Positions 11,881 to 63,915 are shown, counted from the stretch's first letter. The stretch: 64,000 bases of DNA from a virus (IMGVR_UViG_3300037511_000246:2550-66549), one strand, 5' to 3'. Numbers and translations are program-made. The notes: generated by a model from the letters alone, not told the origin.

Positions 11881-11881
11881 G

Positions 11882-16838: not shown

Positions 16839-17259
16839 CTGGCAGGCCGACTTCGTGCGAGAAGCGCGGGGATTGATTGGCGTCAAGTGGCGTCACCGTG
16901 GTCGAAAGCCGTGGGCCGTTGACTGCATCGGTCTCATTGCTCTCGCTGCTGAGCGTAGCCATGTTCCATTTGAAGATGAGCGTGGGTATGGTCGCGAGCC
17001 TTGGGACGATCAGATCAGAAAGGGCTGCCGTAAGCGTTGGGGAATGCCGATCGAACGCAGGGATGCGCGTGCCGCTGACATCGCTGTGGTGCGCTGGTAC
17101 AAGGCTGAACCTTCACACTTGGGGATCATAGCTGATCACCCAGATGGCGGTTTGTCGATCATACACGCGCACCTGATACATGGTGTGATAGAGCAAGGGA
17201 TTGACGACAACATGTTAGAGTGCATTGTTGAAGTCTATAGAATCAAGGTGTCACCATGA
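16825..17259 (+). CDS. NlpC/P60 family cell-wall peptidase (tail-associated)
   Basis: Catalytic 'VDCIGLI' Cys and a downstream His ('IIHAHLIHG'). GTA g14-like position. Confidence 0.7.
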   Translation: MTSVNWQADFVREARGLIGVKWRHRGRKPWAVDCIGLIALAAERSHVPFEDERGYGREPWDDQIRKGCRKRWGMPIERRDARAADIAVVRWYKAEPSHLGIIADHPDGGLSIIHAHLIHGVIEQGIDDNMLECIVEVYRIKVSP

Positions 17260-20200
17260 GTCTACGAACAGTTCTCGGCGGTGTAGGCGCTGCGATCGGG
17301 TTCATCTATGGTGGACCATCTGGAGCGCGATGGGGCTTCATGATCGGTTCTACGATCGGAAGTCTCGTAGACCCACAGACCATCCAAGGTCCGAAGATTG
17401 GTGAGATCGCGAACCAGACTGCTCAGGAAGGCGGTCCAAGACCGATTGTGTATGTTCGCAGTCCACCGATGCCGGGTAATGTGATCGATCAGAGTAACCC
17501 GCGCATCGTCAAGAAAAAGAGCGGCGGTAAGGGCGGACCGAAGGTTGTGTCGGAGCAAGTGTTCCGTACCTATGCCATCGGCGTCTGCGAAGGTCCGATC
17601 TCAGGGTTCAGAAGGGTCTGGCGCAACAATGTTCTTGTATACGACGTATCAGAGAACTCTGCGATTAGCGCTGAGGATAACGCGGCCTTCCTAACTAAGG
17701 GACGGTTCTTCCTAGGAACGTTTGATCAGGATGCTAGCCCTGATCTTGAGGCTATCCATGGGGTAGGCACAACGCCATCGTATCGTGGCACTGCATACAT
17801 GGTCATGGCAGACGAGGATCTTACGGATCTTCGTGGTGCTATTCCTCAGTGGATATTCGAAGTAGCGTCAGGGTGCGCCCTAGAGCGTGTGATATTTGAT
17901 GAGAGCGGTGTGTGGAATCGCCCTGACGGTGTTACAAACATCAACCTATTCTTAGTAGGTCCGGGCGGTGAAGGCCGAGGTAACTTCGGAACTGCTACTG
18001 CTGCTGCCGGTGCGCCCGGTGGTGGCGGCGAAGTATTCTATGAGACCAATGTCGATGTCTCTTCTCAGACACAGTGGCGATTGCTCGTTGACAGAGCAGA
18101 TCTAGCGACGCCGGGTGGTGACCCACATGCTCGTACACAGTTTGGACATGGCGACCCAAGTAACTCTACCTTCGTCGAACTTTCATTTGTCCGTGACGGA
18201 AGAACGATAACTTGCGGCGCTAATCAGGGCGGTAGTGGTTATCCTAGCCTCGATCCAAATAACTCTGGCGCTAGTGGTGGTGGTGGCAGCAGGTCCGTGT
18301 TCATATCAACGACTAATCCTCCTGAGTCTAATCGCTATGTTTCTCACAGTGATATTCTACCTCCTGGAGGCGGTGATCCGGGCGGTGCTGGTGGTGAGAG
18401 CCAGTTAGTCACGTTCATCAATCCCAAGATAGGTGATGGAGAGACTGACTTCGCTGGTGTCGCTGGTGGTGGCGGTGGCGCTGGCGGAGCTGGTGCGCCT
18501 GCTACTTCAGGCGGTGCTGGCGCTGGTGGTCCGGGTCTCTACTATGGAAACATCGTTGGTGATGATCTAGGCGACAATGGATGGTTCGGTGGTGGTGGTG
18601 GTGGTGCTGCTGGAGCGAGCCTTTGGGATGAAGATAGTGGCCCACAGATTGCGCAGGGTGCTCCCGGTGGTCTTGGAGGTGGCGGCAATGGCTACGGCTA
18701 CAACTTCGCACAAGTCGCACCATACGGTGGAACTCCAGGACTTGCTGGAAGCGGTGGCGGCGGTGGTGGCGCTGGTGCTGCATTTGAAACGTTCTTCGTT
18801 CCTGGTGGCGCTGGTATCGGCGTAATCCTTTACTGCCCAAGCGGAGCCAACAATCTTTCACTTAAGGACATCGTAACGCAAATCTGTGAGCGAGCTGGAA
18901 TGCCGTCAACGTTAATTGATGTCTCGCTACTGCCAGACGTCAATATCGAAGGTCTGGCAGTAACGAATCAGTATACGGCTGGTGAGATTCTCAGATCACT
19001 TGGGCAAGCTTACCTGTTCGATCCATCACCTCGCGATGGCAAGGTCTGGTTCATACCGAGAGGTGGCAACCATGTTGCTACGGTGGCAGATGCAGACCTT
19101 GTCGATGAAGACGATACACCAGAAGATGATCGTCGAGATGATTCGATCAGCGTGCCAAGAGTGCTGCATCTCAACTATTGGGACGTAGATGGTGGTCTTG
19201 CCACTAGCAAGCAGAGCAGTGAGCGTAGCGGTGATCGTCGAAGTGTAGGTGAGACGTCTATTCAGACACCAGTGTTGATGACTGCAACTCAGGCTGCACA
19301 GAACGTCGTTATCAATCACAAGGTGTTGGCGGAGAATCAGCGCGGTGCTGTCAACCTGACTCTTCCAGACAAGTGGATTGGGCTTAGACTGGCGCATCCA
19401 ATCATCGCTGAGATTGGTGGCGTCAATCATCGTGTGATGATTCAGAAGATGTCGGTGCTTGACGGGTACCAGAAGTATGAGGCTACCTACGATCGGCAGA
19501 GCGCCTACACTTCAAACGTCGAGGGCATCCCCGCTGTTCCACAGACGCCTCCTCCGACTTCCAATGTTGGACCGACGTTAATAATTCCTCTGGACATCCA
19601 GCTCCTTAAAGATAGCGATGACAACGAAGGTCTCATCTACTATGTAGCAGTCGCAGGTATAAGCCCAGCTTGGAGCGGCGCACTAGTAGAGCTCAGTTAT
19701 GATGGTGGCGCGAATTATGTGGATAGTCGAGAAGCCCTTGCATCGTCTATCATCGGTAACTTAGTTGATGATCTGCCGTCTCATCCCAGAGAATATCCAG
19801 ACACTGTACACTCGTTCCGAGTTAGCATCAATCCACCAGATTCTGAGCTTGAAGATGTCGGGCTGTCTGGAATGCAGAACAGGCTTAATCTGGCAGCCGT
19901 AGGCAGCTTAGCTCTTGGATGGGAGCTTATCAATTTCGGTGCGTGTGAGGAAACTACCGCTGATCAATGGGAGCTCAGTAACCTGCTGCGAGGTAGGAAA
20001 GACACGACGCCAAGACTGCACAATGCTGGTGAGAGCTTTGTAATGCTTGATCACAATGTGCTGGGGCTAGTAGTGTCGTCTGTTACAGACATAGGTCGCA
20101 CACTGACTCTGAGAGCTACAAGTCTGGGTGCGCCAGTAGAAACCGGCACAGTGGTCAGCATGACTTATGCAGGCCAGTCTCAGATAGAGCGACACATTGG

Positions 20201-21407
20201 ATACTTGGATGTTCGAATCGACGGTTCCAATGCAATCGTTTCGTGGCAGGGTGTGGCTCGATTGGGTGGCGGATCACTTGTAGCACATGGCGCGCAGTTC
20301 ATAGGGTATCGCGTGACATTCTATGATAACGTGAATGACCCTATCGTTGTCGATACGCTCTCGCAGAGCATCACCCAGGATATCTCCTCACTTGAAGATG
20401 ACTTCATCATCAAAGTGGTTCAAAGAAACAATCTGACTGGTGAGGGTCCGCCTACCTTCTGGCCAGACGGTGCTGACGTAGTGATACCGCCTACAGAAGA
20501 TACTGTACCACCTTATCTGTTTGAGATTGGTCAAGATATGGAATTTGATATGGGTGGAATAATGGTACAGCGCATGATCTTTAATGACGCGGTGCCACCA
20601 TATCGAATTGATATTCGTAGAATTGTGACTGCTGGACTAGACTACTCTACGCACTATTTCCCGTTAGATGCTGATTCCATAGATGATAGAACTTTCGTCT
20701 ATGCATTGGCAGATCAAGTGTGGGGCCTGACAAGACATCCAACAGACCCAGAGCGTCTCTACTGGTCAGATGGTAATACGGCGTACTATGCCAATGTGCG
20801 CGAGCATATGGGTGGCGGCAGTCCGGTCATCACATCTTTGTCCCCATTATTGGCAGGGCTCATGTTCAATGAAGATGGAACTGAACTCTATGCAGCTAAG
20901 ATCGATTTGCCATCTAGTTGCGAAATAAGAGTGTTAGATCCCGATACGATGAATCCAATTCGAGACCTGAGTATTGGCAGTAGCTGCCCGTTCAAGTTCA
21001 TACAAGGAACTGATGCTAGCGCGCCAAATAGCTTGTGGCTGTGCGACATCATCAATGGAACGCACAACGGACAGCTGTTCCGAGTTGACCGTACCACTGG
21101 CGTCATCGATAAGACGATTGAGTGTCGTCGGTACCCGATGGGTGGCCTTATTGTTGGTGACTTCATCTATGTATACTGCAAGAACAGTGATGTCGGCCAT
21201 GACCCACCTGCCGGATTCGGCATGTTCAAATATCAGATATCGACAGAGTCTGAAGTTGCGAATTTCATCAATGCAGATGACGGCGATCCATACATTGGGC
21301 AAGAGTCTAACGCTGTTGTCGTCGATGCACCATATATCTCAGTCGGCTGGGGCATTGGCCATAAAGTGTTCGATACCACAGTAGACGCATACCTTGACGC
21401 GCCGTAG
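17256..21407 (+). CDS. host-specificity / central tail fibre protein (gpJ / GTA g15-like) with internal ~300-aa Gly-rich low-complexity tract
   Basis: 1383 aa. N-terminus 'GGPSGARWGFMIGSTIGSLVDPQTIQGPKIGE...' resembles J-like proteins. Residues ~230-520 are (GGxG)n low complexity. Confidence 0.7.
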   Translation: MSLRTVLGGVGAAIGFIYGGPSGARWGFMIGSTIGSLVDPQTIQGPKIGEIANQTAQEGGPRPIVYVRSPPMPGNVIDQSNPRIVKKKSGGKGGPKVVSEQVFRTYAIGVCEGPISGFRRVWRNNVLVYDVSENSAISAEDNAAFLTKGRFFLGTFDQDASPDLEAIHGVGTTPSYRGTAYMVMADEDLTDLRGAIPQWIFEVASGCALERVIFDESGVWNRPDGVTNINLFLVGPGGEGRGNFGTATAAAGAPGGGGEVFYETNVDVSSQTQWRLLVDRADLATPGGDPHARTQFGHGDPSNSTFVELSFVRDGRTITCGANQGGSGYPSLDPNNSGASGGGGSRSVFISTTNPPESNRYVSHSDILPPGGGDPGGAGGESQLVTFINPKIGDGETDFAGVAGGGGGAGGAGAPATSGGAGAGGPGLYYGNIVGDDLGDNGWFGGGGGGAAGASLWDEDSGPQIAQGAPGGLGGGGNGYGYNFAQVAPYGGTPGLAGSGGGGGGAGAAFETFFVPGGAGIGVILYCPSGANNLSLKDIVTQICERAGMPSTLIDVSLLPDVNIEGLAVTNQYTAGEILRSLGQAYLFDPSPRDGKVWFIPRGGNHVATVADADLVDEDDTPEDDRRDDSISVPRVLHLNYWDVDGGLATSKQSSERSGDRRSVGETSIQTPVLMTATQAAQNVVINHKVLAENQRGAVNLTLPDKWIGLRLAHPIIAEIGGVNHRVMIQKMSVLDGYQKYEATYDRQSAYTSNVEGIPAVPQTPPPTSNVGPTLIIPLDIQLLKDSDDNEGLIYYVAVAGISPAWSGALVELSYDGGANYVDSREALASSIIGNLVDDLPSHPREYPDTVHSFRVSINPPDSELEDVGLSGMQNRLNLAAVGSLALGWELINFGACEETTADQWELSNLLRGRKDTTPRLHNAGESFVMLDHNVLGLVVSSVTDIGRTLTLRATSLGAPVETGTVVSMTYAGQSQIERHIGYLDVRIDGSNAIVSWQGVARLGGGSLVAHGAQFIGYRVTFYDNVNDPIVVDTLSQSITQDISSLEDDFIIKVVQRNNLTGEGPPTFWPDGADVVIPPTEDTVPPYLFEIGQDMEFDMGGIMVQRMIFNDAVPPYRIDIRRIVTAGLDYSTHYFPLDADSIDDRTFVYALADQVWGLTRHPTDPERLYWSDGNTAYYANVREHMGGGSPVITSLSPLLAGLMFNEDGTELYAAKIDLPSSCEIRVLDPDTMNPIRDLSIGSSCPFKFIQGTDASAPNSLWLCDIINGTHNGQLFRVDRTTGVIDKTIECRRYPMGGLIVGDFIYVYCKNSDVGHDPPAGFGMFKYQISTESEVANFINADDGDPYIGQESNAVVVDAPYISVGWGIGHKVFDTTVDAYLDAP
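17950..18830 (+). repeat. Gly-codon (GGY) rich low-complexity coding tract inside the tail fibre gene
   Basis: Runs of ggtggtggcggtggcgctggc. Generates spurious antisense His-rich ORFs. Confidence 0.6.
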
Positions 21408-35127: not shown

Positions 35128-36516
35128 TCAGTACTTCAGGAAGCCGTACTTCGCCAGGAACGGTACGAACTTCTTGACATCCTTGGCCGAGATGTCCTCG
35201 TCCGCGGCCTTCTTGACCAGCGCCTTCAGCGTGATCGTCTTGGCAGCACGCACCAGTTCCAGCAGCTTGGTCTTGCTGCCCTTCTTCGGACGCTTCTTCA
35301 CGAAGCTGATCTTGGTGCTGTCTTCCAGCTTGCCCAGCTTCTCCTTCTTCGCCGGCTTGTCCTTGACCTTCTTGTCGGCCTTCTTGGCCTTGCCCTTTTT
35401 GCCTTTCTTCACTTCGTCATCCTCCTCATCGTCGGTGTCTTCATCTTCGTCATCTTCGTCATCTTCGTCATCGCCCTTGGCTTTCTTGGCCTTGCCCTTC
35501 TTGCCCTTGGCGAAACCCTTGGACTTGGACTTCTTGCCTTTCGGCTTCTCGTCCTCGTCGTCCTCGTCGTCCTCGTCGTCCTCGTCATCCTCCGAGTCTT
35601 CATCGTCCTCGTCGTCTTCCGAGTCCTCGTCGTCGTCCTCGTCATCCTCGTCGTCATCCTTGGCCTTGGACTTCTTGCCGGACTTGGCCTTGGGCTTGGA
35701 CTTCTTGCCTTTCGGCTTCTCGTCCTCTTCATCGTCCTCCGAGTCTTCGTCCTCGTCGTCATCCTCGGAGTCTTCGCCCTCATCGTCCTCGTCATCGGAC
35801 TCGTCGTCCTCATCCTCATCCTTGTCGCCGGCAGCCTCTGCCGCAAGTGCGAGACGCTTCTCTTCCAGGTCTTCATCGGTCATGAACCGCATTTTCTTGT
35901 CCTCCTTAGATGGACGCTTGCGTGATTCGACGGGCCAATCATCAAGCACAGTGCGGTCCGTCAGCCGCAAGGTGCCCTTCTTCTCGACGGCCTTCAATGC
36001 CAGAAGCATCACGTGCCGTGCGAAATGGAAAGCTTCGGTCCATGACTTTGACGACAGCCCTAGCGGGCCTTCATCAGCTGTCAGACCTTTGTATGCCAGC
36101 GCTCCGAGTTCGTTCCATGAGCAGGTGCTCAGTATGGATACGATCTCGAACATGAACTGAGGCTCTGCCTGCTGCTTTGGCAGATACTCGCGATACTGTG
36201 GCGGCTTCTTTTCCTTGAGCTTACACAGATCGACGAAGGCATCGAATAGATTGTTCGTGAAGACATGCACCTGCTCTTCCTTGAAGAGTGCCTGCCGCAG
36301 GTCTTCACCGCGCAGACTGGTCGCCAGCTTGCGCCGCGACTTCTTGCTGGCCTTGGCTTCGTCGCGCATGCGCTTAGACCGCTTGCCTGCCCTGCGGTAC
36401 TTCTTGAGGTCCTCGTCAGTCGACGGCACAAACCCACTCTTATCCTTCTTTGGCGGGTCTGGATCGAACGGAGGATCCTCCGACTTCTTCTTACGCCGCT
36501 TTTTTCCGAAAGCCAT
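35128..36516 (-). CDS. large protein with ~200-aa N-terminal domain and ~230-aa tail of alternating poly-Asp/Glu and poly-Lys blocks
   Basis: 462 aa. RBS 'ggagaag'. Blocks such as 'DDEDDEDDDEDSEDDEDDEDSEDD' alternate with 'KPKGKKSKSKGFAKGKKGKAKKAKG'. Confidence 0.6.
   Translation of the reverse strand: MAFGKKRRKKKSEDPPFDPDPPKKDKSGFVPSTDEDLKKYRRAGKRSKRMRDEAKASKKSRRKLATSLRGEDLRQALFKEEQVHVFTNNLFDAFVDLCKLKEKKPPQYREYLPKQQAEPQFMFEIVSILSTCSWNELGALAYKGLTADEGPLGLSSKSWTEAFHFARHVMLLALKAVEKKGTLRLTDRTVLDDWPVESRKRPSKEDKKMRFMTDEDLEEKRLALAAEAAGDKDEDEDDESDDEDDEGEDSEDDDEDEDSEDDEEDEKPKGKKSKPKAKSGKKSKAKDDDEDDEDDDEDSEDDEDDEDSEDDEDDEDDEDDEDEKPKGKKSKSKGFAKGKKGKAKKAKGDDEDDEDDEDEDTDDEEDDEVKKGKKGKAKKADKKVKDKPAKKEKLGKLEDSTKISFVKKRPKKGSKTKLLELVRAAKTITLKALVKKAADEDISAKDVKKFVPFLAKYGFLKY
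35400..35830. repeat. GAN/GAY trinucleotide-like coding repeat (acidic tract)
   Basis: tcgtcctcgtcgtcctcgtcatcctc... Produces spurious mirror ORFs on the plus strand. Confidence 0.6.
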
Positions 36517-37987
36517 ATTGCTTCTCCATTGCTTTGAGGATGCTCTGTTGTGTCTTGTCTTTGCTGCGAATGGCGAATCTCATCGTCTCATCCACAGTGT
36601 TGCGCACCAGAATACGATACAGCAGCACGCGTCGGCGCTGGCCCTGTCGCCACACTCTCTGATAGAACTGCTCGTAGTTCTCAAGGTTCCATGTCATCGC
36701 ATAGTAGATAACGATGCCGCCCTTGCCTTGCAGGTTCAGTCCGTGTGCGATGGACTCTGGGTTGCCGAACACCACTGGATGCTCGCCACGTTCCCACTCG
36801 TCGATGATCTTATTGACTACACTGTCCTTTGTGCCACCGTCGATCAGCGGTGCGTTGATGAAGTTGTTGGGCGCGTCATGCTTCTTGAAGTAGTTCTGTA
36901 TGCGCTTGTAGTCGTGCTTGAACTCCACCGCTACCAGCGCAGGCTCACCATTCAGCTCTTCGAGCAAGTCCAGCAGGTTCTCTTCCTTCTCGTTGTGGAT
37001 GGTCAAGAACTTTCTGTTCTTCTTGTTGCGAACCTTCTCTTTGTCAACCTTCTCATTCGACAGGTAACGGCCACGCTCGTCAATGAAGATGCCACCATTG
37101 GCAATCTGTCGCAGCTTACCACTGGCGACCGCAGCGTTGGCCGCGACGATCTCATTGCTCTGCCAGTTGACGATGAACTCCTTCTCGAGTTCGTCGTACA
37201 TGGCGCGAGCCTTCTTCGGCAGCTCAACCCATCTGTTGATGACCTTGAGTGGTGGCAGGTCTAATTGATCGTGCCCGTAGCGTATGATCAGTGGTGCTAT
37301 GGCCTTGAAGATTCGCTTCTCAGCACCGTCTTGTGGAACCCACTCATAGCCCTTGTACCCTGCGGGCATGAAGAACCGATTGCGGTACTGTGTGATGAAC
37401 TTGCCGAGCGACGCGCCAAGATCCAGGATGTACACCTGACTGAACAGGTTCATCAGACCACGGGGCGCAGGTGATCCAGTGCCAATGTACCGACGTATGA
37501 ACAGCGGCAGTATCTTCTTCAGAGCGCGGAAACGCTTGGTGACAGAGTTGCGCAGCCTTGACGATTCGTCGATCGCCAGCATGATCTTGCCCTTGCTCTT
37601 CAGCAGTCGCTTCTGCTTGGCAAGCCACGGCAGTCCTTCGAAGTTCATCAGATACAGTTCGGCGTCCTCTTCGAGCGCCGCTTTCCGGTTACCATGTACT
37701 ATGCTGATACGGATGTCTTCGAGACCCTTCCATTTCTTGACTTCTCGAGGCCAGACGTTCTGTACGATCTTCTTTTTCGATATGACGAACAGGCAGTCTA
37801 CAAGACCAGCGGCCCGCAAGATCTTGAAGATCCATAGCCAGATAACGGTCTTGCCTAGACCCGGTGCCAAGAATAAGCCAGCCTCTGGTCTAGTGACTCC
37901 GAACTCGATTGCTGTCTTTTGGTAGGGCTTTGGTTTGAATAATTTTCTCGCAGATTGCAATCGCTTTCTTCGCCGTGTAGACCACAT
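36491..37987 (-). CDS. SNF2-family (DEAD/DEAH-like) helicase
   Basis: 'LAPGLGKT' Walker A, 'LAIDESSRLRN' DExx box, helicase C 'HGLNLQ...QRVWRQGQ'. Start taken at 'MWSTRRRKRL'; the track ORF extends to 38149. Confidence 0.7.
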   Translation of the reverse strand: MWSTRRRKRLQSARKLFKPKPYQKTAIEFGVTRPEAGLFLAPGLGKTVIWLWIFKILRAAGLVDCLFVISKKKIVQNVWPREVKKWKGLEDIRISIVHGNRKAALEEDAELYLMNFEGLPWLAKQKRLLKSKGKIMLAIDESSRLRNSVTKRFRALKKILPLFIRRYIGTGSPAPRGLMNLFSQVYILDLGASLGKFITQYRNRFFMPAGYKGYEWVPQDGAEKRIFKAIAPLIIRYGHDQLDLPPLKVINRWVELPKKARAMYDELEKEFIVNWQSNEIVAANAAVASGKLRQIANGGIFIDERGRYLSNEKVDKEKVRNKKNRKFLTIHNEKEENLLDLLEELNGEPALVAVEFKHDYKRIQNYFKKHDAPNNFINAPLIDGGTKDSVVNKIIDEWERGEHPVVFGNPESIAHGLNLQGKGGIVIYYAMTWNLENYEQFYQRVWRQGQRRRVLLYRILVRNTVDETMRFAIRSKDKTQQSILKAMEKQYGFRKKAA

Positions 37988-38237
37988 AAGTTGGAATCCC
38001 CATTGCCTTGAAACGTCGGCGGTAATACTGTTGGATCTTCGTAGGTTCCTTACCGTCGCGCTTGAACTCGAATGCGACTGGTATCGCAAACGGCTTCGAT
38101 GGCAACAGCACCAGCTTGTCGCTACGTCCCACCTTACCATAGCGCCCAAACATTGTCAACTTGATAACCTCCGCATCCCAGCGTCTCTCGGCTTCGTCCT
38201 TGAACTTGCGTTCTTCTACTGCCTCGTCCTTACTCAC
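37890..38237 (-). CDS. VRR-NUC domain nuclease
   Basis: 'GKVGRSDKLVLLP...AFEFKRDGKEPTKIQQYYRRRFKAMGIPTYVV' has VRR-NUC character. Typical partner of phage SNF2 helicases. Confidence 0.55.
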   Translation of the reverse strand: MSKDEAVEERKFKDEAERRWDAEVIKLTMFGRYGKVGRSDKLVLLPSKPFAIPVAFEFKRDGKEPTKIQQYYRRRFKAMGIPTYVVYTAKKAIAICEKIIQTKALPKDSNRVRSH

Positions 38238-42349: not shown

Positions 42350-42753
42350 TTCTTGTAGCCATCACGGAAGCTGTGATTGGCGAGTGTGCCATCTGGCTTG
42401 ACGCCAGCACGGCTTCTGCACTTTGGGCACAAGACCACAGACATCTTGCTCGGCGTGACCACAAGCTTTCCGGCTTCCAAGTTGACCGTCGACTTGACGC
42501 CATGCTTGCGCTCCATAAGAGCGATGTAGTTGAACAGGTGCGTTATCGGCATGTCCTTGTCCAACGGATATTCAACTGGTGCGTACTTCTTCACGATCTT
42601 TGGTATCTTCAATGGCGGGTCTTGGCATAGATGCACCACTCCCTTGTCATCTACCAGACGTCGCGCCTTCACATTGTCAGCGAGCAATACGTTTGCCCAC
42701 GTCAACCCAGTCTTGACGCTGCAATACTTGCATCCCTCTGTCTTCGCTTTCAT
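42298..42753 (-). CDS. zinc-finger protein (multiple CxxC pairs)
   Basis: Strong RBS 'aaggagg'. 'CKYC...C', 'CPKC...HC'. Confidence 0.4.
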   Translation of the reverse strand: MKAKTEGCKYCSVKTGLTWANVLLADNVKARRLVDDKGVVHLCQDPPLKIPKIVKKYAPVEYPLDKDMPITHLFNYIALMERKHGVKSTVNLEAGKLVVTPSKMSVVLCPKCRSRAGVKPDGTLANHSFRDGYKNWIHCQSSGSMYEAPKK

Positions 42754-44657
42754 GCTGCCTCCTTGAACTCTGAATAGTCTACAGCACGCGCCCATGATCT
42801 GGTTGCATACTTGGCTTCCGCCATCATCGGCACGTTGAACTCCATGTCGCACATGGCTTCGATGATGCGCTTGCCATAGATATTGACCTTGCGCACTCGT
42901 GGCACCATGCAGACGAGTTCGTCATGCACCTGCACTGCGATGCGCGCTTCTGGCACGCGCTCCTTCACTTGGATCATACCTTGCTTGGTGACGTCTGCGG
43001 CAGATGGTTGGATCTGGTAGTTCAACATCTTGTAGTCGAACGACATCCAGCGACCATACTTCTTGACGAACTTCGGCTCTTCACAGAAGTACTCACGGCC
43101 ACCCCATGTGCGCAGAGGTTCATCACGACGAGCCAGACGCTTGAGCTGCTTCATCAGCTTACTGATCCCAGGTACTGCCTCGAGAATGCCATCGCGCACT
43201 TGCTTGGCAGTGTCCTTGTCCGCATCCATCTGCACAGCCAGCTTGTCCACGCCCATGCCGTAGATGATACCGAACACTGTGGTCTTGATGGCCTTGCGAG
43301 GAAACTCGATGCCTGTGATATCCTTCACAAGCTGCTGGCAGAACGTATGTACGTCCAGCATCGGGTTCTCAATGTAGGCGCGCATGAGAACGTCTTTCTC
43401 GAAATGCGCCAGCAGCCGCAGCTCTTGCTGATTGTAGTCGACGCAGATCATCACACAGTTGTCGTCTGGTATTATATAGTCGCGCAGACCTATGAACGGG
43501 TAGTCGTACTCGTCCTTGAGAAGCTTCTGCATCAGCAGCAGAACATCTTTGTTCTTCGACTCTTCGACATTAGCGCTGATGTTCTGCATGTTCGGATCGC
43601 TGCTGCTATAGCGACCAGAGCGTGCGCCACCGCCACCTTCGTCATAGCCGCGCACCTGATTGAACTTAGGCAACAGTCTGTCACCAGTGAGAATGCACTG
43701 GTCCATCCACGGATGCATGAACGACGAGATAGTCTTGTTGGCAACAGAGTGGATAGCCAGCAGGTTCAGCAGCTCTTTGTCGTTGCAGCCTTCTTGCAGC
43801 AGTGCGATCTTCGTGCTGACCTTGCCAGTAGGCGTGCGGCTGATCTTGTCAAGCTTGTGCGCTTTGATCATCGCATCGGCAAGCTGTACACCTGAGTTGA
43901 GGTTGAAGCCCTTCGGGTTCTCAGGTGACTTCATGTTCTTCGGATCGAGACGCAGCTTCTTGGCTATGCGCCGCAGTACGTCACGATCCATCTGCTCGAA
44001 GACTGCAGTGCCCTTCTTCAGACGTTTGACGTCGATGCGAACACCACTGCGCTCCATCTCGAGCGTGATGGGCACGCACTTGAGCTCTCGCTCGTACGCT
44101 TCTCGCATGCCTCGCCTGTCGACTTCCGGCATCATCTTCTTGTCGAGGCGATAGGTGCGACTCACGTCACCGATGGCATACTTGCCAACTAGACCACCGG
44201 GAGCCTGATCAATGTACTCGCCCCATGACGACGGCTTCTTGCGCGCCGCAGGTATATGGTCGATGATCCATTCACGCAATCTGTCCTGCTCATCTGGAGC
44301 CATGTCTAGATGGTCAGCAGCCAGACCCTTCAAGTCCAGCTCTTGTGCGTGTGGGTCCAGCAAGAATGCTTGGAACAGCGTATCGTCGAAACGCTTGGGC
44401 GGTTTGATGTTGAGATGGCACTCGCCAACGTCCATGTCAAATGCGCCGTGATGAAAGAGTACGCGGTCAGCTTTGTAGGCATCCTTGATCTTGGAGCGTG
44501 CTGTACCTATGTCGGTATTGTTGCCTTCAGGGTGGCCCCATGCGAGATACTCTTTCTCGCCGTTCGGCCATCGAATGGCGGCACCGACTGGCTTCGGTGG
44601 ATACTGCGGCCGGCTTCTTATAGCGCCGGTTTCAAAGTCGACCGTTGACGTTTCCAC
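42750..44657 (-). CDS. family A DNA polymerase with 3'-5' exonuclease domain
   Basis: 'VDFETGA' Exo I, motif A 'DYNQQELRLLAH', motif B 'RKAIKTTVFGIIYGMG', motif C 'VHDELV'. Confidence 0.85.
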   Translation of the reverse strand: METSTVDFETGAIRSRPQYPPKPVGAAIRWPNGEKEYLAWGHPEGNNTDIGTARSKIKDAYKADRVLFHHGAFDMDVGECHLNIKPPKRFDDTLFQAFLLDPHAQELDLKGLAADHLDMAPDEQDRLREWIIDHIPAARKKPSSWGEYIDQAPGGLVGKYAIGDVSRTYRLDKKMMPEVDRRGMREAYERELKCVPITLEMERSGVRIDVKRLKKGTAVFEQMDRDVLRRIAKKLRLDPKNMKSPENPKGFNLNSGVQLADAMIKAHKLDKISRTPTGKVSTKIALLQEGCNDKELLNLLAIHSVANKTISSFMHPWMDQCILTGDRLLPKFNQVRGYDEGGGGARSGRYSSSDPNMQNISANVEESKNKDVLLLMQKLLKDEYDYPFIGLRDYIIPDDNCVMICVDYNQQELRLLAHFEKDVLMRAYIENPMLDVHTFCQQLVKDITGIEFPRKAIKTTVFGIIYGMGVDKLAVQMDADKDTAKQVRDGILEAVPGISKLMKQLKRLARRDEPLRTWGGREYFCEEPKFVKKYGRWMSFDYKMLNYQIQPSAADVTKQGMIQVKERVPEARIAVQVHDELVCMVPRVRKVNIYGKRIIEAMCDMEFNVPMMAEAKYATRSWARAVDYSEFKEAA

Positions 44658-46041: not shown

Positions 46042-46104
46042 GTTTCCTCCAGTCAAAGGGCGCGGCCTTCAAGCCGCGCCCTTAAGTCAACAGTCGACGA
46101 TCGA

Positions 46105-47358
46105 CTACTTCTTGCCGAAGCGTGAGCCCTTCTTGGACTTCACTTTGCCCTTGCCAGACTTCTTGGAAGGCTTCTCGTCTTCCTCGTCATCTTCATCGTC
46201 TTCGTCATCGTCTTCATCATCGTCGTCATCGTCGTCATCGTCGTCAGCAGCTTTTCGAGAACGCTTGCCTTTGCCGCCAGTGTCTTTCTTACCGCCGCGT
46301 CGCTTGGAAGACTTGCGATCATCTTCGTCATCGTCTTCCTCGTCTTCGTCATCATCCTCGTCGTCTTCGTCATCATCCTCGTCGTCTTCTTCATCGTCCT
46401 CATCGTCTTCTTCGTCGCGCTTGGACTTGCGCTTTTTGCCCTTGCCGCGCTTGGGCTTTTCGTCCTCGTCTTCTTCGTCTTCATCCTCGTCATCCTCCTC
46501 GTCGTCGTCATCATCCTCGTCGTCCTCATCGTCGTCATCACGACGCTTGGACTTCTTGCTGGCCTTGGACTTCTTGTCCTTCTTGCCTTTCTTGCGCGGC
46601 TTGTCGTCATCCTCGTCATCGTCCTCGTCGTCCTCGTCGTCCTCACTGTCATCAGTGCCGTCGAACGGGGTCAGCAGCTGATCGCGAATCTCCTGCTGCT
46701 TGGACTCGATGGCGCGCAGAACTTCCTTGTCCTTGATCTTCTTGTCGATGTCGAAGAGCACGACCGGGTAGTCCTCGTCTTCATCGAACGACAGTTCGAC
46801 AATGACTTCGAAGAACTCCTTGTTGAGGTTCGTGTCGCAGTCCTTGACGAAGGCTGACCAGTGCCGCAGGCTCTTCGGCGGCAGTTCGATGAACGCAATG
46901 TCTGCGTTCTCAACGTCGTCGAGATCATCCGCACTGATGACCGCAAGCCTCCGGCGGTTCTGACACTTGCCAGCAGTGCGTCCGCCCTGATAGGCCATCG
47001 GGCAGTCATCGCACGACTTGGCCTGCGGTGACTTGACGTTGTCGTGCGGTACGAGTTCGTCCTTCTCCATGTCGATGGCGAAGCACTTCGGGATGTTGCC
47101 ACCATCCTTGCTGTAGCCCTTGGCGTAGTAGGTGTTGAGATAGCAGAAATCCACCACCACGACCTTCAGCGTGCGTCCGAGGTTCTCCTGATCCAATGTG
47201 AACCGTCGGCTCTGCAAGCTGATCCTGTTCTCCAGACCGCCACCGCCGGCGGGACCCTTCTCGCGCGCATTGGCACTGCGTTTGGCCTTCTTGCCCATGT
47301 CCTTCTCCCAGTCCTTGTCTTTCGACTTGGACTTCTTCGATGTCTTCTTCATCATCAT
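46105..47358 (-). CDS. large protein with Cys-containing N-terminal domain and ~200-aa alternating poly-acidic/poly-basic tail (ssDNA-binding-like?)
   Basis: 417 aa. N-terminal ~200 aa contain 'CDDCPMAYQGGRTAGKC'. The tail has 'DDSEDDEDDEDDDEDDD' blocks interleaved with 'KPRKKGKKDKKSKASKKSKRR'. Confidence 0.55.
   Translation of the reverse strand: MMMKKTSKKSKSKDKDWEKDMGKKAKRSANAREKGPAGGGGLENRISLQSRRFTLDQENLGRTLKVVVVDFCYLNTYYAKGYSKDGGNIPKCFAIDMEKDELVPHDNVKSPQAKSCDDCPMAYQGGRTAGKCQNRRRLAVISADDLDDVENADIAFIELPPKSLRHWSAFVKDCDTNLNKEFFEVIVELSFDEDEDYPVVLFDIDKKIKDKEVLRAIESKQQEIRDQLLTPFDGTDDSEDDEDDEDDDEDDDKPRKKGKKDKKSKASKKSKRRDDDDEDDEDDDDDEEDDEDEDEEDEDEKPKRGKGKKRKSKRDEEDDEDDEEDDEDDDEDDEDDDEDEEDDDEDDRKSSKRRGGKKDTGGKGKRSRKAADDDDDDDDDDEDDDEDDEDDEEDEKPSKKSGKGKVKSKKGSRFGKK
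46180..46640. repeat. GAN/GAY trinucleotide-like coding repeat (acidic tract)
   Basis: Long runs of tcgtcatc/ctcgtcgtc within 46105..47358. Confidence 0.6.
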
Positions 47359-47777
47359 CCTCTCTTGCGGATTGAAACGCTCACCTTCTCGAACTTGCCG
47401 ATGCCCGGTACGGCCTCACCTTCCTCCAGTCGGGCAATGAGAGCACGTGAAGCGACGCGATTCTGGTAGAGGTCGAACGCATCATTCTTCTTCACATACT
47501 TCTGGAACTTGACGGGGTTCTTGATGTTGTAGATCGTGCGACGCTGGATGCCCGCCTGACTCTTCACACCTGCGGCCTTCTCGAGGTCGCTGTCTTCCAT
47601 CTTCACCCGCAGCTTGTACTCCAGCACGGCACGCTTCTTCTTAAGCTTGCCGAGTGCAGATTCTGCGGAATGAATCTTCTGATCGAAGGCATAGAGCCCG
47701 TCGATCAAAGAGCCAAGCTTCTTGCTCGGCTTCAGCGGCTTCTCCTTCTTGCCGCGCTTCTTAGTGGCAGTGCGCAT
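47355..47777 (-). CDS. hypothetical basic coiled-coil protein
   Basis: RBS 'gaggag'. 140 aa. Confidence 0.4.
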   Translation of the reverse strand: MRTATKKRGKKEKPLKPSKKLGSLIDGLYAFDQKIHSAESALGKLKKKRAVLEYKLRVKMEDSDLEKAAGVKSQAGIQRRTIYNIKNPVKFQKYVKKNDAFDLYQNRVASRALIARLEEGEAVPGIGKFEKVSVSIRKRG

Positions 47778-48321
47778 GACTTGGTTTCTCCTCTGCCTGT
47801 TTGCCAGTGAGACGGACTTCATTGGCTTCGGCTATGTGCTTGCGCACTTCACTTTCCAGCTTTCCATGGAAGTCGAGCATGGACAGCTTCGTATCCTGCA
47901 ACAGCTCCACCGTGTGCAGCAGTAGGGCACTTGACACTTCGTACAACGCTTCCATGTTCTGGTGTGATGGCAGCGGCTCCGATTCGGCTACAGCCTTGCC
48001 GATCTCATATGCCGAGTGGATGCACTTGCCTGTCGCGCTCAAGTGCAAGTTGATGATCCAGGCCAGGACATTGAAGACTGCCGTGTAATCGTCACGGCCA
48101 GTTGGAACCATTCTGTGCGCCGCATGGCCGCATGGATTGGTCTTCAAGCATTCGAAGACCTCGTCCATCACATTGGACGATGTTTCGATTACCGACTTGA
48201 CGTACTTGTCGATGTGCTCTTGCATTGCCTTCTGACGCAGAGACTCCTTCTCATCGATGGCACCGCCTCCGAGTATTTGGACAAGCTGTGCCAATGCGGC
48301 TAGACCGTCGCGCCCTTTCAT
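47761..48321 (-). CDS. hypothetical protein
   Basis: 186-aa ORF. Confidence 0.35.
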   Translation of the reverse strand: MKGRDGLAALAQLVQILGGGAIDEKESLRQKAMQEHIDKYVKSVIETSSNVMDEVFECLKTNPCGHAAHRMVPTGRDDYTAVFNVLAWIINLHLSATGKCIHSAYEIGKAVAESEPLPSHQNMEALYEVSSALLLHTVELLQDTKLSMLDFHGKLESEVRKHIAEANEVRLTGKQAEEKPSHAHCH

Positions 48322-49214
48322 ACTTGCTCCTTGTCTGGTCGTAGTTTGATGAACCGTGGATGCCGCAGTGACCCGTGGACTGTCGGCTTCTGAAACTCGA
48401 TCTCAGCAATGGGTCTGGCCTTGCTGAACGTGTGCCGCATGTTGAACAGGGTATCGCGCACATCGTCCGACATGCCTGACACGCTCACACGCTTGAGAAC
48501 CTTCTTACCCTTGATTGTCACCTTGCGCTCGACATAGACAGCACCGAGCGTACCTTCGTACTTGCCCTTGCCCGGTTTCCATCCAACGATGGGCAGGTCT
48601 TCGGTGTCCGACTCTTTGAGCTTCAGCCATGCTTTATGGCGTTTGGCAATCCAAGGGACTGCCATGTTCTTCAGCATCGCGCCCTCGTACTCGCCCTTCA
48701 AGAATTCGCGATAGGCAATCTTGACGTCTCGATCGGAGGCGACGCTCACAGATGGCACGATGCTGATGCCACGTAAATTCAACCGAGCAACAGCACGGCT
48801 GAGATTGTCGTGGCGTATGCGTTGCGCCACTGCATCCTCACCTGCGATGAAGTGCTTGATGGGCATGGCGAAGAACACATGGTAGACGGCGGCTTCTTCG
48901 GTGTGGTTCTTTCGATGGATCGCACCACCTATGTCATTGAACGTAGTGCTGCACATCTCACCGTCGATCATGACGCCGCCACGGTACTCATCGCTCTGGT
49001 TGAGCAACCGCACGCGCAGTTTGGATATCTGATCCACCAGATGACTGAACATGTCCAGCTCCCTGCCGTTGCGAGAGTAGAACTTGTAGTCACCGTCTCG
49101 AGCCAGACAGATCACGCGCACGCCATCCATCTTTGGCTCGACCTGATAGTGGCTCCAGTCTTCGATCTTACCCGGTCGATAGACATGGGCCTTCATCACT
49201 TCAAAAGCTCTCAT
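48318..49214 (-). CDS. ATP-dependent DNA ligase
   Basis: 'VEPKMDGVRV' (KxDG adenylation motif). 298 aa, with a downstream OB region. Confidence 0.8.
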   Translation of the reverse strand: MRAFEVMKAHVYRPGKIEDWSHYQVEPKMDGVRVICLARDGDYKFYSRNGRELDMFSHLVDQISKLRVRLLNQSDEYRGGVMIDGEMCSTTFNDIGGAIHRKNHTEEAAVYHVFFAMPIKHFIAGEDAVAQRIRHDNLSRAVARLNLRGISIVPSVSVASDRDVKIAYREFLKGEYEGAMLKNMAVPWIAKRHKAWLKLKESDTEDLPIVGWKPGKGKYEGTLGAVYVERKVTIKGKKVLKRVSVSGMSDDVRDTLFNMRHTFSKARPIAEIEFQKPTVHGSLRHPRFIKLRPDKEQV

Positions 49215-56119: not shown

Positions 56120-56965
56120 TTAGCTGTCCGCCTTCAGCCGCGACTTGTTCGCCTCTACAAGCGCTTCTATCAGCGCTGGACGCATGCCAGTCGATGCGCA
56201 CACTGCCAGCAATGCTTCAGTATCCTTTGGCAAACACTTGCCATCGAATCCAGGCTTGTGTGCAAACGCTGCAGAGTGAGAGCGCCCATTGCGTGGATCA
56301 TCCAGCCAGCCTTCACGAACTGTGTGATAGCTGGCGCCGAAGTGATTGCAGATGTCGCGCATCTCATTGGCGAACGTCACCTTCAACGCAAAGAACGTGT
56401 TCTCGAAATACTTGACGAGCTCTGCGTCGGTCGACGTCATCTTGCGAAACTTGGTTGATGGCCCTACTATCGGCATCATCATGTCGATGATGTAGTCTGC
56501 AGAGCCTGCACCCTCGGCCATCGGCGACGAGCCGAGAATCACAAAGCCATGTGATATGGGATCATTCGGATTCGGAAACTCTGGTGGTGTCCAGTATCCA
56601 CCTTCGCCGATGTACTCCGGTGAGAACACCAGTGAGCGATTGAACAGCTTCGACAGTCGTGCTGTCGTGCCCGGCTCGATGGTGGACTTGATCATCACTA
56701 GTGAGATGTCGCGCGGCAGCTTCTCGATCTCCTGTTCCACGATGCTTGTGTCGCACCTGCCGTTCGGCAGCATCGGCGTCGGCACGCAGATGATGGCAAG
56801 ATTGCACAGTTTCATGATGTCGCGCTCAACCTGACGTCCCTTGTATGGATCTTGTATGAACGTCTTATACTTGCGATCGAAGAGGCTGGCATAAGCCTGC
56901 CCGACGTAACCGTGGCCTACGACCAGAACCTTGCCGCTCACTTCGCACCTCCACGCTTCGGGCAT
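56120..56965 (-). CDS. UDP-glucose/GDP-mannose 6-dehydrogenase family protein lacking the C-terminal UDP-binding domain
   Basis: N-terminal 'VLVVGHGYVGQ' Rossmann motif and catalytic 'GKCLPKD'. Only 281 aa; ends ~35 aa after the catalytic Cys, followed by ~750 nt without ORFs. Confidence 0.55.
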   Translation of the reverse strand: MPEAWRCEVSGKVLVVGHGYVGQAYASLFDRKYKTFIQDPYKGRQVERDIMKLCNLAIICVPTPMLPNGRCDTSIVEQEIEKLPRDISLVMIKSTIEPGTTARLSKLFNRSLVFSPEYIGEGGYWTPPEFPNPNDPISHGFVILGSSPMAEGAGSADYIIDMMMPIVGPSTKFRKMTSTDAELVKYFENTFFALKVTFANEMRDICNHFGASYHTVREGWLDDPRNGRSHSAAFAHKPGFDGKCLPKDTEALLAVCASTGMRPALIEALVEANKSRLKADS

Positions 56966-61547: not shown

Positions 61548-61807
61548 TCCTCCCCATTAGCGATCCGCGCCAGTATGTCACCATGACATGCTTTTGGAGC
61601 GCACCAGCAACCGAGTATCTTGCCCTTCAATTCCTTCTTAGCCCGTTTGATGAGCTCCGGCTGTTTCTTCAGCCACTTCTCATACTTCCTGATCGTCTGT
61701 TTGCGATTGCCATCACGATAGATGACAAACGGATTTCCCCAAGGACCTGGACGACCGATATAGACATCGTGCTTCTCACGCTTGCAGTGGACAACACGCT
61801 TGTTCAT
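61544..61807 (-). CDS. DUF4326 domain protein
   Basis: 'YIGRPGPWGNPF...KILGCWCAPKACHGDIL' is the DUF4326 signature. Confidence 0.6.
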   Translation of the reverse strand: MNKRVVHCKREKHDVYIGRPGPWGNPFVIYRDGNRKQTIRKYEKWLKKQPELIKRAKKELKGKILGCWCAPKACHGDILARIANGED

Positions 61808-63915
61808 GTCCGAACCTTCCCGCCGAACTTCTTCGCATGCGTTGTGTAGTGCTCAGCCCATTCACGATTCTTCTTGCTGTCCCATTTGTCCTTGTTGAAC
61901 AGGCAGTACAGCCACATCGCCTTCGAGGTAGCGCTCACGCGCACCTGTCGGCGCTCTATGTTCGCGTCGTTCAACATCCTTCCCAGACGCTGTATGGTGA
62001 CGTTGAAGCGATACTTGGGGTACAGCCGCTCGAACAGCCGCAGCAGGTCCTCGGCGCGATAGAGATGCAGGTCTGGCAAATGGCCGTCCACCATCATCAA
62101 CATCTCCGCGTCTGTCCGCACTCTATCAACAAACTCGCCAAGCTGATCCTTGCCAAGCCCGACCAGTCCGGCCTTCCACTCCGTCTTCATGACGTCTGCC
62201 TTCGGATTGAAGTCTCCCACGTCTACCTCGTTCAACAGGTAGTGCAGTATGTGTGCAGGGCCATCACCTCGCCGCACGTACTCGTCCAGTTCGTCGTACA
62301 CTGTCTGGTCGAGCTTCTCGGTCGGCGCCTCAATCACGAAGATGCGACGGTCGTTCTTGTCGATGATCAGAGCGTCGCTGTGGTTCGACGTGAAGTAGTA
62401 GTTGCAGTGGTCAACGTAGTCGACCTCTGGCTGAAATTTCTCGTTCACTGACACGGTATCGCGCGTTATCATGTCGTTGACCGCGCCCATCAGTGCCTTG
62501 CGATCGGCGAAGTCAGACAGGTAGATCTCGTTCGTCACCACCATCTGGCTGCGACCCGCATAGGTGTTGTACACGCCATTCAAAGAAGCGTTCTTTAGAC
62601 GCTTGAAATTCTCTTTCCCGTATATGTACTCCATCACTGGATCCACCGCAAAGGTCTTACCTATGCCTTGCTTGGCACCATAGACGAATACTGCCTGAAA
62701 GAGCTTCGCTCCCGGATGCTGTACAGGGTACGCCAGCCATTTGAGAAACCACTCGACGTACTCCGGCTTCCGGAAGATGTAGTGAACGAGATCGAGCCAC
62801 ATGGCAGGCTTCTGCTTCTTGGGTCGCACCACTGTCGGCTTCCACAGGTTCATGTCGTTGTCTTCCGTCATCTCCGGCGCACCCGGCTCATATATCACGC
62901 TCTTGACGGAACGCCTATGCTGCGACTTTCCCCATAAGTCGATTACCAGCGCTGTCTGCTTCGGGCCGATCATCTCCTCGCCCTCATTCATGAACGTCTC
63001 GCGTGCATGATAGAAGCTGCGAAAGAACTTCCGCGCCTTGATATCGAAGAACCGCATCTCGTCTTCTACATAGCAGATCTTGTCGTTGAGAGCATTGATG
63101 CGACTATTGGCCCTGTACTCCTGTCGCGGCAAGTCTGCAAACGCTTCCGCGCCGTGCTCTATCAGGTAATCATCAAGGCCCGTCTTGGGGCCTGCGGTCT
63201 CCGCGTCGAGCATCACGAAGCTGATGGACTTGGGCGAGTACTCTTTTGTGAGTGTGAGCGCCAGCCCTGTAAGAGCGTCGCGCACTTCGGACTTGAGCAT
63301 GACGTCTGCGTCATAGCAGATCTCCACTTCCCTGTCCGCCCATTTGAATTGAGTGAGCTCTGGGATGAGATCCCAAAGCCTCTTCTGCGACTTGTATCCG
63401 TACACGCCACCGAGCGCTATGCATGGAATGCCGAGCTTGCATGCCAGCGCCGCCTTCTTCTCGCCCTCAGTGATGAGGATCTTCTGCTCGATGTCTCCCG
63501 CCACCTTCTTCCAGTTCAGGTAGGGAGCAAGGTACACATGTGGACTTGAGTTTGAGGGCTGTGAATAACGGAAGCTTCCGCCCTTCTTGGTAAAGCCTCC
63601 CTTCTTCGATTCCAGAAAGCGTACTCTGGAATACGAGATCTTCTTCCCTGAGAAGTCAAAGTACGGAATCCGATAACTGGATCGTGGTTCACCAACATAG
63701 GAATCCGTCTCGTCGCGCGAGAGTACTTCCAGTTGGAGTTTCCTGAAATCCTTCTCGGTCAAAGAACTCCGCTTTAGATCCTCCAATGCTGCTTCTAGCA
63801 GTTCATCACGGTCTACACTGTTGGTATCCCTACCTTTTGTCTTTCCACCCTTGCGCTTCTCAGACTTCCGGATTCCGTGTTCCGGCTTCTTTGCTTTCTT
63901 TTTTCCAAACGACAC
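61804..63915 (-). CDS. primase-helicase (Toprim primase domain + D5/P4-like SF3 helicase P-loop)
   Basis: 'ILITEGEKKAALACKLGIPCIALGGVYGY' (Toprim) and 'VYGAKQGIGKT' Walker A with a downstream D5-like region. 703 aa. Confidence 0.75.
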   Translation of the reverse strand: MSFGKKKAKKPEHGIRKSEKRKGGKTKGRDTNSVDRDELLEAALEDLKRSSLTEKDFRKLQLEVLSRDETDSYVGEPRSSYRIPYFDFSGKKISYSRVRFLESKKGGFTKKGGSFRYSQPSNSSPHVYLAPYLNWKKVAGDIEQKILITEGEKKAALACKLGIPCIALGGVYGYKSQKRLWDLIPELTQFKWADREVEICYDADVMLKSEVRDALTGLALTLTKEYSPKSISFVMLDAETAGPKTGLDDYLIEHGAEAFADLPRQEYRANSRINALNDKICYVEDEMRFFDIKARKFFRSFYHARETFMNEGEEMIGPKQTALVIDLWGKSQHRRSVKSVIYEPGAPEMTEDNDMNLWKPTVVRPKKQKPAMWLDLVHYIFRKPEYVEWFLKWLAYPVQHPGAKLFQAVFVYGAKQGIGKTFAVDPVMEYIYGKENFKRLKNASLNGVYNTYAGRSQMVVTNEIYLSDFADRKALMGAVNDMITRDTVSVNEKFQPEVDYVDHCNYYFTSNHSDALIIDKNDRRIFVIEAPTEKLDQTVYDELDEYVRRGDGPAHILHYLLNEVDVGDFNPKADVMKTEWKAGLVGLGKDQLGEFVDRVRTDAEMLMMVDGHLPDLHLYRAEDLLRLFERLYPKYRFNVTIQRLGRMLNDANIERRQVRVSATSKAMWLYCLFNKDKWDSKKNREWAEHYTTHAKKFGGKVRT

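Follow-up and report, generated by a model that had tools for sequence, protein, structure and literature searches.

Organization of the locus

The window, that is the whole 64,000-nucleotide stretch of viral DNA analysed here (IMGVR_UViG_3300037511_000246:2550-66549), is a tailed-phage genome, to which none of the deposited phages was close at the DNA level. Genes for the terminase, major head, portal, tape measure and tail proteins occupy 0 to 26 kb on the plus strand, while the minus strand carries a replication and nucleotide-metabolism module. Along with exonucleases, a thymidylate-synthase-like gene and glucosyltransferase-like genes, this module includes the following genes:

61804..63915, minus strand: primase
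48318..49214, minus strand: ATP-dependent ligase
47355..47822, minus strand: conserved upstream partner gene of 155 aa, PHROG 13900
42750..44657, minus strand: family A polymerase (PolA)
36491..38149, minus strand: SNF2 helicase

The gene described below lies between the ATP-dependent ligase and DNA polymerase A. The initial annotation had placed it among replication genes, and with the ligase, polymerase, SNF2 helicase and primase all identified, these surroundings are now well established. Its features, with positions in the window, are as follows:

46105..47358, minus strand: whole gene, from the ORF listing and translation; 417-aa SSB-like protein with a predicted zinc/OB-fold core and a block-polyampholyte tail
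47230..47358, minus strand: N-terminal basic segment and conserved helix (residues 1-43; helix 12-32 in the AF2 model)
46654..47229, minus strand: predicted OB-fold core (residues 44-235)
46963..47085, minus strand: putative Cys4 zinc site (C92, C116-x2-C119, C132) between OB strands, in invariant columns
46174..46653, minus strand: block-polyampholyte region (residues 236-395), four D/E tracts alternating with K/R blocks
46108..46173, minus strand: basic C-terminal tip (residues 396-417, ...KVKSKKGSRFGKK), ending KGSRFGKK
46105-46107, minus strand: stop codon
46056..46083, minus strand: 12-bp GC-rich hairpin right behind the stop codon, terminator-like or mRNA-stabilising

The ORF starts with ATG and its translation (...VVVVDFCYL...CDDCPMAYQGGRTAGKC...) agreed exactly with the 417-aa protein of the initial annotation, which had given no strand; the gene is on the minus strand. 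Direct inspection of the sequence showed that its start overlaps the stop codon of the upstream 155-aa gene in an ATGA, and a Shine-Dalgarno-like AGAGAGG is located ahead of the start. The 66-nt spacer that follows the gene and contains the hairpin had a predicted RNA folding energy of -33.7 kcal/mol (z = -5.4). As a strict intrinsic terminator the hairpin was rejected, as it failed the consensus and its U-tract is short. A protein identical to the SSB-like protein, P0163, is encoded on a 66.5-kb contig of a JGI metagenome.

Sequence family of the core

An N-terminal domain of ~200 aa had been proposed for this protein. Such a domain is present, but it is larger than proposed, with the ordered part extending over ~235 aa. 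This core (residues 1-235) matched PHROG 27714, a family of unknown function, with E = 1e-22 over residues 44-229, and this was its only match. Searches of the SSB-like protein against Pfam, including the bacterial SSB domain, and NCBIfam gave no match, PDB sequence searches with the family (phmmer/hmmsearch) returned nothing, and neither the protein nor 149 relatives matched the Pfam gp32 family. One family member had a marginal match to Pam3_Gp34 in Pfam (E = 0.009), which was discarded, as none of 10 further members that were scanned showed it. With HMMER, an exhaustive search by profile gave 5,226 representative clusters (E <= 1e-3), most of them with 240-290 aa, and no source had a name for any of them.

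The members of PHROG 27714 from cultured phages are KPP25 gp70, phiR18, AXL3 gp43 and PW916, which were found in phages of Pseudomonas (KPP25 and phiR18), Stenotrophomonas (AXL3) and Pseudoxanthomonas (PW916). They share 24-30% identity with the SSB-like protein, are annotated as hypothetical proteins, and form the true sequence family of the core, with the same gene neighbourhood. Unlike the SSB-like protein, however, they measure only 292-300 aa, lack D/E tracts and have tails that are short and basic. In the KPP25 and AXL3 loci, the PHROG-13900 gene is directly upstream and a DNA polymerase gene is nearby, and AXL3 also has the ligase. The synteny of the SSB-like gene was repeated in KPP25, AXL3 and five metagenomic relatives, and the PHROG 13900 gene was directly upstream of the SSB-like homologue in six metagenomic loci (L002, L003, L007, L008, L010 and L011) as well as in KPP25, the arrangement being the same in all loci that were inspected.

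Predicted fold and putative zinc site

The only invariant columns in the alignment of 149 sequences were those of C92, C116, C119 and C132, a pattern implying that these four cysteines form a putative structural zinc site inside the core. With the tail left out, an AlphaFold model based on this alignment reached a pLDDT of 89.3 and a pTM of 0.81, and replaced an unusable earlier model from a five-sequence alignment (pLDDT 56). In the model, an N-terminal helix (residues 12-32) is followed by a beta-barrel domain with helices. The helix carries the motif W17-x3-L/M21-x3-A25 and is followed by a Gly-rich linker, and the family consensus at this helix reads 'W...LA..A......E....G'.

The best structural match of the core was 9teh_I, an integrase cofactor, and further structural matches comprised ~50 OB-fold ssDNA binders (Stn1/Ten1, Teb1, RPA, CTC1, SSBs, Pot1, MCM-N and MCM10). 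A Foldseek search of the core model against the PDB gave nothing significant; the same search against BFVD retrieved 43 proteins of phages (E < 1e-3), almost all of them named 'Uncharacterized', and one distant structural relative in this database is named 'SsDNA binding domain protein'. The initial annotation had suggested an SSB-like function, and at the level of the fold the predicted OB domain supports this suggestion; a clear non-DNA-binding fold was not what the model showed.

The integrase cofactor belongs with TG1 gp25, phiC31 gp3 and phiBT1 gp3, phage SSBs that moonlight as recombination directionality factors of serine integrases (PMC11795197). The core fold of the SSB-like protein, as modelled, is common to these proteins (PDB 9teh chain I). 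When the SSB-like family profile was aligned by hhalign with phiC31 gp3, however, the probability was 0.7%, and with a 7-member profile of the gp3 family it was 0.1%. Judging from the model, the relation of the core to the gp3/TG1 gp25 family is thus structural only. The cysteine patterns also differ, being C...CxxC...C in the SSB-like protein and HHC...CGC in the phiC31 gp3/TG1 gp25 family. In addition, tails in the gp3 family are short, with an acidic tip where one is present (...DEPPF), whereas the SSB-like protein has a 182-aa block polyampholyte and a basic tip.

The alternating-charge tail

A tail of ~200 aa with alternating D/E and K/R blocks had been reported for this protein. We confirmed the alternation and found the tail to be somewhat shorter, with 182 aa (residues 236-417) made up of pure D/E blocks of 17, 27, 33 and 24 residues that alternate with K/R/G/S blocks of 21, 14, 24 and 22 residues, and with a recurring junction motif, (D/E)-E-K-P-K/S. 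The tracts contain 102 acidic residues, with D (70) outnumbering E (32), and the block region of ~160 residues has a net charge of about -55. For the tail, the FCR was 0.82, the NCPR was -0.30 and kappa was ~0.71 (z = 16 versus shuffles), where z is from our own kappa-type statistic with 2,000 shuffles and differs from the NARDINI z-scores of PMC11938373. Charge-sign changes numbered 11, compared with 64 expected and a minimum of 45 in 2,000 shuffles. The acid blocks showed DNA periodicities of 9, 21 and 30 nt, suggesting that they probably grew by codon-repeat slippage.

Tails with at least two long acid blocks were present in 17 of 174 family members, all metagenomic. In each of these 17 homologues, the reading frame is kept through tails of variable length, acidic and basic segments alternate, with 3 to ~11 repeats, and the protein ends in (K/R)n-G-S-R-F-x-(K/R). 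The remaining family members have basic tails of ~25-35 aa, often ending ...K/R-F. Across the whole family, the net charge over the last 12 residues was at least +3 in 157/174 members, and 119/174 had an aromatic residue within the last eight. Since basic, aromatic C-termini are found in most of the family, we take the basic tip to be the ancestral, family-wide element, and the block polyampholyte to be an insertion, specific to one clade, between core and tip. Most family members work without a block tail, which means that the core does not depend on it for its function. The claim that the tail exceeds normal SSB tails in length and regularity holds even within its own family, in which proteins of 240-290 aa are typical.

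Comparison with the homologue P0001 showed that non-acid tail positions were 62% identical and the core 61%, with block order and lengths alike, and more remote relatives differed by insertion/deletion of whole blocks. In the relatives the tail is thus neither unconserved nor untranslated, since both its architecture and its frame are retained, and these sequence comparisons indicate that it is under evolutionary constraint.

A second block-charged protein

The initial annotation had pointed to a second protein with a similar tail, encoded elsewhere in the minus-strand module:

35128..36516, minus strand: protein B, 462 aa, with an orphan N-domain, a D/E-tract/K-block linker (~231-398) and a conserved C-terminal domain of ~60 aa

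The two proteins were indeed alike in style (kappa ~0.64 and z = 13.7 for the charged region of protein B) and unrelated in their N-terminal domains; what had been called a tail in protein B, however, is an internal linker before its C-terminal domain. The gene for protein B adjoins that for the SNF2 helicase or overlaps it. Homologues follow the SNF2 helicase gene directly in two loci, L008 and L010. Their identity over the two ordered domains is 42%, and both have a linker made of D/E tracts and K-blocks. These homologues came to light solely through local tblastn within loci retrieved on account of the SSB-like gene. On the P0162 contig, SNF2 is followed by a 433-aa protein that matches 'TFIIF_alpha' weakly and is probably the counterpart of protein B. 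No homologues were obtained by tblastn against phages, by a word-indexed protein search or by scans of IMG/VR and JGI metagenomes. Protein B had no match in Pfam, PHROG or NCBIfam, and its C-terminal domain had none in the PDB or Pfam; our impression is that this domain is winged-helix-like and putatively DNA-binding. A match of the N-domain to Daxx (17.6 bits, cutoff 27.6) was taken as chance.

No other ORF of the window had two or more acid blocks. The presence of the tail style in two proteins of one genome, which had been read as a sign of a dedicated function, is more than a peculiarity of this phage, as the pairing recurs in the related phages represented by L008 and L010; these cases, however, come from a single clade and probably reflect one evolutionary event. 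A shared repeat family of the two tails, which had been suggested as something to look for, gained no support. Tail-to-tail blastn matches of 75-80% identity occurred in many registers and reflect GAY/GAR/AAG composition alone, and a shared repeat cassette was rejected, the DNA similarity being only that of low-complexity sequence.

Comparison with known SSBs and charged proteins

The model places the core with T4/RB69 gp32 (PDB 8gme and 2atq), which likewise has an OB-fold ssDNA-binding core. The gp32 C-terminal domain, however, has ~50 residues and is uniformly acidic, whereas the SSB-like tail, at 182 residues, is interspersed with basic blocks and ends in basic residues. The layout of E. 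coli-type SSB (PMC7293020), with an OB core, a long disordered linker and a short conserved terminal peptide, is closer to that of the SSB-like protein, and both have a Phe near the end of the terminal peptide. Nevertheless, the E. coli linker is rich in Gly, Gln and Pro and carries hardly any charge, while the SSB-like linker is 82% charged, and the E. coli tip is acidic (DDDIPF), while the SSB-like tip is basic (KGSRFGKK).

In its charge pattern, the phage pair resembles the nucleolar proteins UBF, nucleolin, NPM1 and NUCKS (King et al. 2024, PMC11938373), in which D/E tracts and lysine blocks are likewise tethered to nucleic-acid-binding domains, and in both cases the grammar is common to several proteins, of one compartment in the nucleolar set and of one phage in the pair. 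In the human proteins, tracts and K-blocks are usually on separate partners or occur with E-rich regions, whereas in the phage both alternate in one chain. The nucleolar grammar is eukaryotic, and any likeness to the phage tail is of convergent origin. DNA mimics of the Ocr, ArdA and gp5.9 type differ in presenting carboxylates on a folded scaffold in a DNA-like geometry, and the K-blocks of the phage tail argue against such a mimic. Taken together, the modelled fold makes the core an apparent unannotated member of a zinc/OB-fold class of phage SSBs, and the new element is the long tail of alternating charge with a basic tip, a style in common with the helicase-coupled protein B.

Proposed function

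Among the ~60 window ORFs that were scanned against PHROGs or Pfam, none matched a canonical SSB family, and a KPP25-type phage described in a genome paper of 2026 is likewise listed without an SSB (PMC13340246). Large serine integrases, the cognate partners of the TG1 gp25/gp3 family, were not found among window ORFs of at least 396 aa on the coding strands other than ORF 17256..21407 (1383 aa, the tail part of the structural module); the ORFs covered were assigned otherwise or encode one of the two charged proteins. Both searches cover the window, and ~2.5 kb of the contig lies outside it. With no other SSB found, and given the predicted fold, the putative zinc site and the gene position, the SSB-like protein is quite probably the best SSB candidate of this phage. 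The fuller statement, that the gene encodes an SSB whose tail has the roles proposed below, is one that we favour only slightly over its denial.

In the proposed mechanism, the core would coat ssDNA in its OB cleft at the phage replication fork and on recombination intermediates, with the zinc having a structural role. The basic N-terminal segment and helix probably provide contacts from one protomer to another or to the polymerase, by analogy with the N-terminal domain of gp32, for which cooperative or polymerase contacts are known, and with the N-terminal peptide of TG1 gp25. For the latter, such contacts have been proposed (PMC11795197). The basic, Phe-containing tip may act as a peptide that docks onto a partner or onto DNA. 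To our knowledge, every characterised SSB tip is acidic, and as tails in the present family are usually short and basic, the paradigm established for SSB tails is not directly transferable.

For gp32, T7 gp2.5 and E. coli SSB, cis competition between the acidic tail and DNA for basic surfaces is well established. The acidic tracts of the SSB-like protein may similarly fold in cis onto the basic DNA-binding cleft, the N-terminus and the tip and compete with DNA, which would sharpen the selectivity for ssDNA and regulate loading. In trans, they may pair with the K-blocks of another molecule, resulting in multivalent, salt-sensitive self-association that concentrates the SSB, and the common sequence grammar may also concentrate protein B at replicating DNA. 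In nucleolar nucleic-acid-binding proteins, complex coacervation is driven by D/E tracts together with K-blocks (PMC11938373), and in E. coli SSB the disordered linker promotes cooperativity and phase separation (bioRxiv 10.1101/2022.01.17.476650). Based on these analogies, we put forward autoregulation together with multivalent co-assembly as the tail mechanism only tentatively, with the chances somewhat against it.

Alternative explanations

At the level of the gene, the low-complexity GAY/GAR/AAG DNA gives long ORFs in several frames, and the ORF or its tail might thus be an annotation artefact that is not expressed as read. Only the SSB-like frame, however, runs from a conserved folded domain to a conserved C-terminal tip, as it does in 17 homologues, and the ATGA overlap, the upstream Shine-Dalgarno-like sequence and the strong hairpin behind the stop codon also speak for a real gene, making an artefact highly improbable. 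At the level of the tail, a neutral or tolerated low-complexity expansion may be considered, in which slippage inflated a spacer that is at most an entropic linker. The tandem DNA periodicities of the acid blocks, the gain or loss of whole blocks among relatives, with block numbers from 3 to ~11, the lack of a block tail in ~90% of family members and the purely compositional DNA similarity of the two tails are in favour of this explanation. Nevertheless, alternation is strict in 17/17 long-tailed clusters that are all <50% identical to each other, the non-acid positions are conserved like the core relative to P0001, with equal block order and lengths, and the same grammar occurs in an unrelated second protein of the same genomes. 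Furthermore, slippage alone would be expected to produce homopolymeric acid runs rather than interleaved K-blocks with a recurring E-K-P-K junction. A tolerated spacer is therefore unlikely in our judgement.

About equally unlikely is a core that is an accessory adaptor and not a general SSB, such as an RDF-type cofactor or a structure-specific or DNA-end binder. Such an adaptor would act with the product of the upstream PHROG 13900/DUF7307/Gp157-like gene in recombination or replication initiation. This would fit the best structural match, 9teh_I, which is a known integrase cofactor, the tightly coupled pair of genes, which is conserved universally and supplies a coiled-coil partner, and the tip, which is basic rather than acidic and hence atypical of SSBs. 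Yet the RDF proteins are themselves SSBs that were recruited as cofactors (PMC11795197), the large window ORFs scanned include no integrase, the family is present in lytic phages such as KPP25, and the window has no other SSB candidate. The acidic tracts might also mimic nucleic acid as a decoy for host proteins, for example nucleoid proteins, nucleases or defence sensors, while the OB core would do no more than bring the decoy to phage DNA. DNA mimics of phages are as a rule strongly acidic, the tracts, of 17-33 residues, comprise 102 acidic residues, and the phage apparently invests in DNA hypermodification, suggesting pressure from host defence. Known DNA mimics, however, are compact and folded, with a fixed charge geometry, and do not consist of long tracts broken up by cationic blocks; a decoy would lose part of its charge to the K-blocks, and no sequence search tied the protein to a known inhibitor family. 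The occurrence of the same grammar in the helicase-coupled protein B, with its putative DNA-binding end domain, also fits co-assembly better, and the decoy is, if anything, a shade less likely than the adaptor.

Implications

The zinc/OB-fold SSB assignment, if correct, would give an SSB to many phages in which the annotated replication module is without one. Examples are the KPP25-like Pseudomonas phages, which are under study for use in phage therapy, and Stenotrophomonas phages of the AXL3 type. The assignment would also link these phages structurally to the SSBs co-opted by serine integrases as directionality factors. In charge, the basic, Phe-containing tip is the opposite of all known SSB tips, suggesting a different partner-recognition code; if this is true, an SSB family would be using the charge-inverted tip for partner docking. 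In addition, the tail represents an unusually clean natural block polyampholyte on a nucleic-acid-binding domain, in a bacterial-virus system that is tractable for the question of whether a grammar of charge blocks drives autoregulation and the formation of condensates in replication.

A more far-reaching idea, which we consider improbable, is that this clade of tailed phages of ordinary size evolved a 'nucleolar' grammar independently, on exactly two replication proteins, the SSB and the helicase-coupled, DNA-binding protein B, which co-condense on phage DNA. The condensate would be a membrane-less replication compartment, possibly excluding host nucleases, and co-condensation, if true, would represent a condensate-based counterpart of the jumbo-phage nucleus.

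The upstream gene

Homologues of the 155-aa upstream gene product matched the Pfam family DUF7307 'Pam3 gp33-like' in 4/7 cases and Sipho_Gp157 in 1/7. The label 'minor head protein' attached to this gene has no conserved-domain support in the genome paper on the KPP25-type phage (PMC13340246), and the position of the gene in the replication module, together with the homologues that match DUF7307 and Sipho_Gp157, makes this label doubtful.

Gene upstream of the SSB-like gene and the 3' hairpin

In KPP25-type phages, the conserved upstream partner gene of the putative zinc/OB-fold (SSB-like) gene is annotated as 'minor head protein'. In every relative it is part of the replication module. Pfam matches among its homologues were to DUF7307 (Pam3 gp33-like) and Sipho_Gp157; the structural label is probably wrong. 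The following features flank the SSB-like gene:

47355-47822, minus strand: upstream partner gene (counterparts at L001 5276-5680 and L002 5268-5780, two loci from relatives)
46056-46083, minus strand: 12-bp GC-rich hairpin, AAGGGCGCGGCU-UGAA-GGCCGCGCCCUU, in the 48-nt spacer 3' of the SSB-like gene

The hairpin had a z of -5.4 relative to shuffles and was not called by the strict terminator scan because its U-tract is short.

Protein B and proteins with acidic tips

As listed, the ORF of protein B, the second block-charged protein (35128-36516), and the SNF2 helicase gene (36491-38149), both on the minus strand, share 26 nt at the end of the latter, suggesting translational coupling. The true start of protein B is uncertain, since alignment with its homologue in L008 begins only at about residue 27. 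Its last 60 amino acids (KISFVKKRP...FLAKYGFLKY) are lysine-rich and conserved, and had no match in the databases. Beyond the two block-charged proteins, only one ORF in the window carries a D/E run of at least six residues, that at 33056-33439 (minus strand), which encodes a 127-aa protein of PHROG 34941 (unknown function) with a short acidic tip at its C-terminus, ...RDDNDDEDEDEE. In the phiC31 gp3 family of recombination directionality factors (L012 289-1038; L016 253-1002), some members terminate in acidic tips with a final Phe (...DEPPF, ...EDEPAF) that resemble the E. coli SSB-Ct motif, and many members from Arthrobacter, Curtobacterium and Microbacterium phages lack the zinc-ligand cysteines.

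Other gene modules

The region at 26941-33439 (minus strand) looks like a DNA hypermodification module, with the following genes:

26941-27666, minus strand: nucleotide-kinase-like
27930-28517, minus strand: dNTP/dNMP phosphohydrolase-like
28457-29527, minus strand: thymidylate-synthase-like, 356 aa (PHROG 5131, E = 4e-106)
31432-32502, minus strand: first match to 'beta-glucosyl-HMC-alpha-glucosyltransferase'
32274-33059, minus strand: second match to the same

The thymidylate-synthase-like protein is long for ThyA and for this reason is possibly a pyrimidine hydroxymethylase. A UDP-glucose-dehydrogenase-like gene (56120-56965) lies outside this module.

An AAA-ATPase gene and its partner (50734-51678 and 51633-52823, minus strand) have counterparts at L003 949-3050 and L008 5416-7525. 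The former has AAA/AAA_5 matches and is MoxR/CobS-like, its PHROG being labelled 'porphyrin biosynthesis', while the latter is DUF7192 in relatives; related phages show this gene order too, upstream of their replication genes.

In the distant relative L011, the family A DNA polymerase (11065-13899) has 944 aa, compared with about 630 aa elsewhere, and its insertion (start ...DYCLSPDTEF, end ...VTGNCAQELR) bears intein-like hallmarks. Within the head/packaging part of the structural module, sialyltransferase-like (PHROG 4603) and methyltransferase-like (PHROG 8156) genes were observed at 6487-8063 (plus strand).
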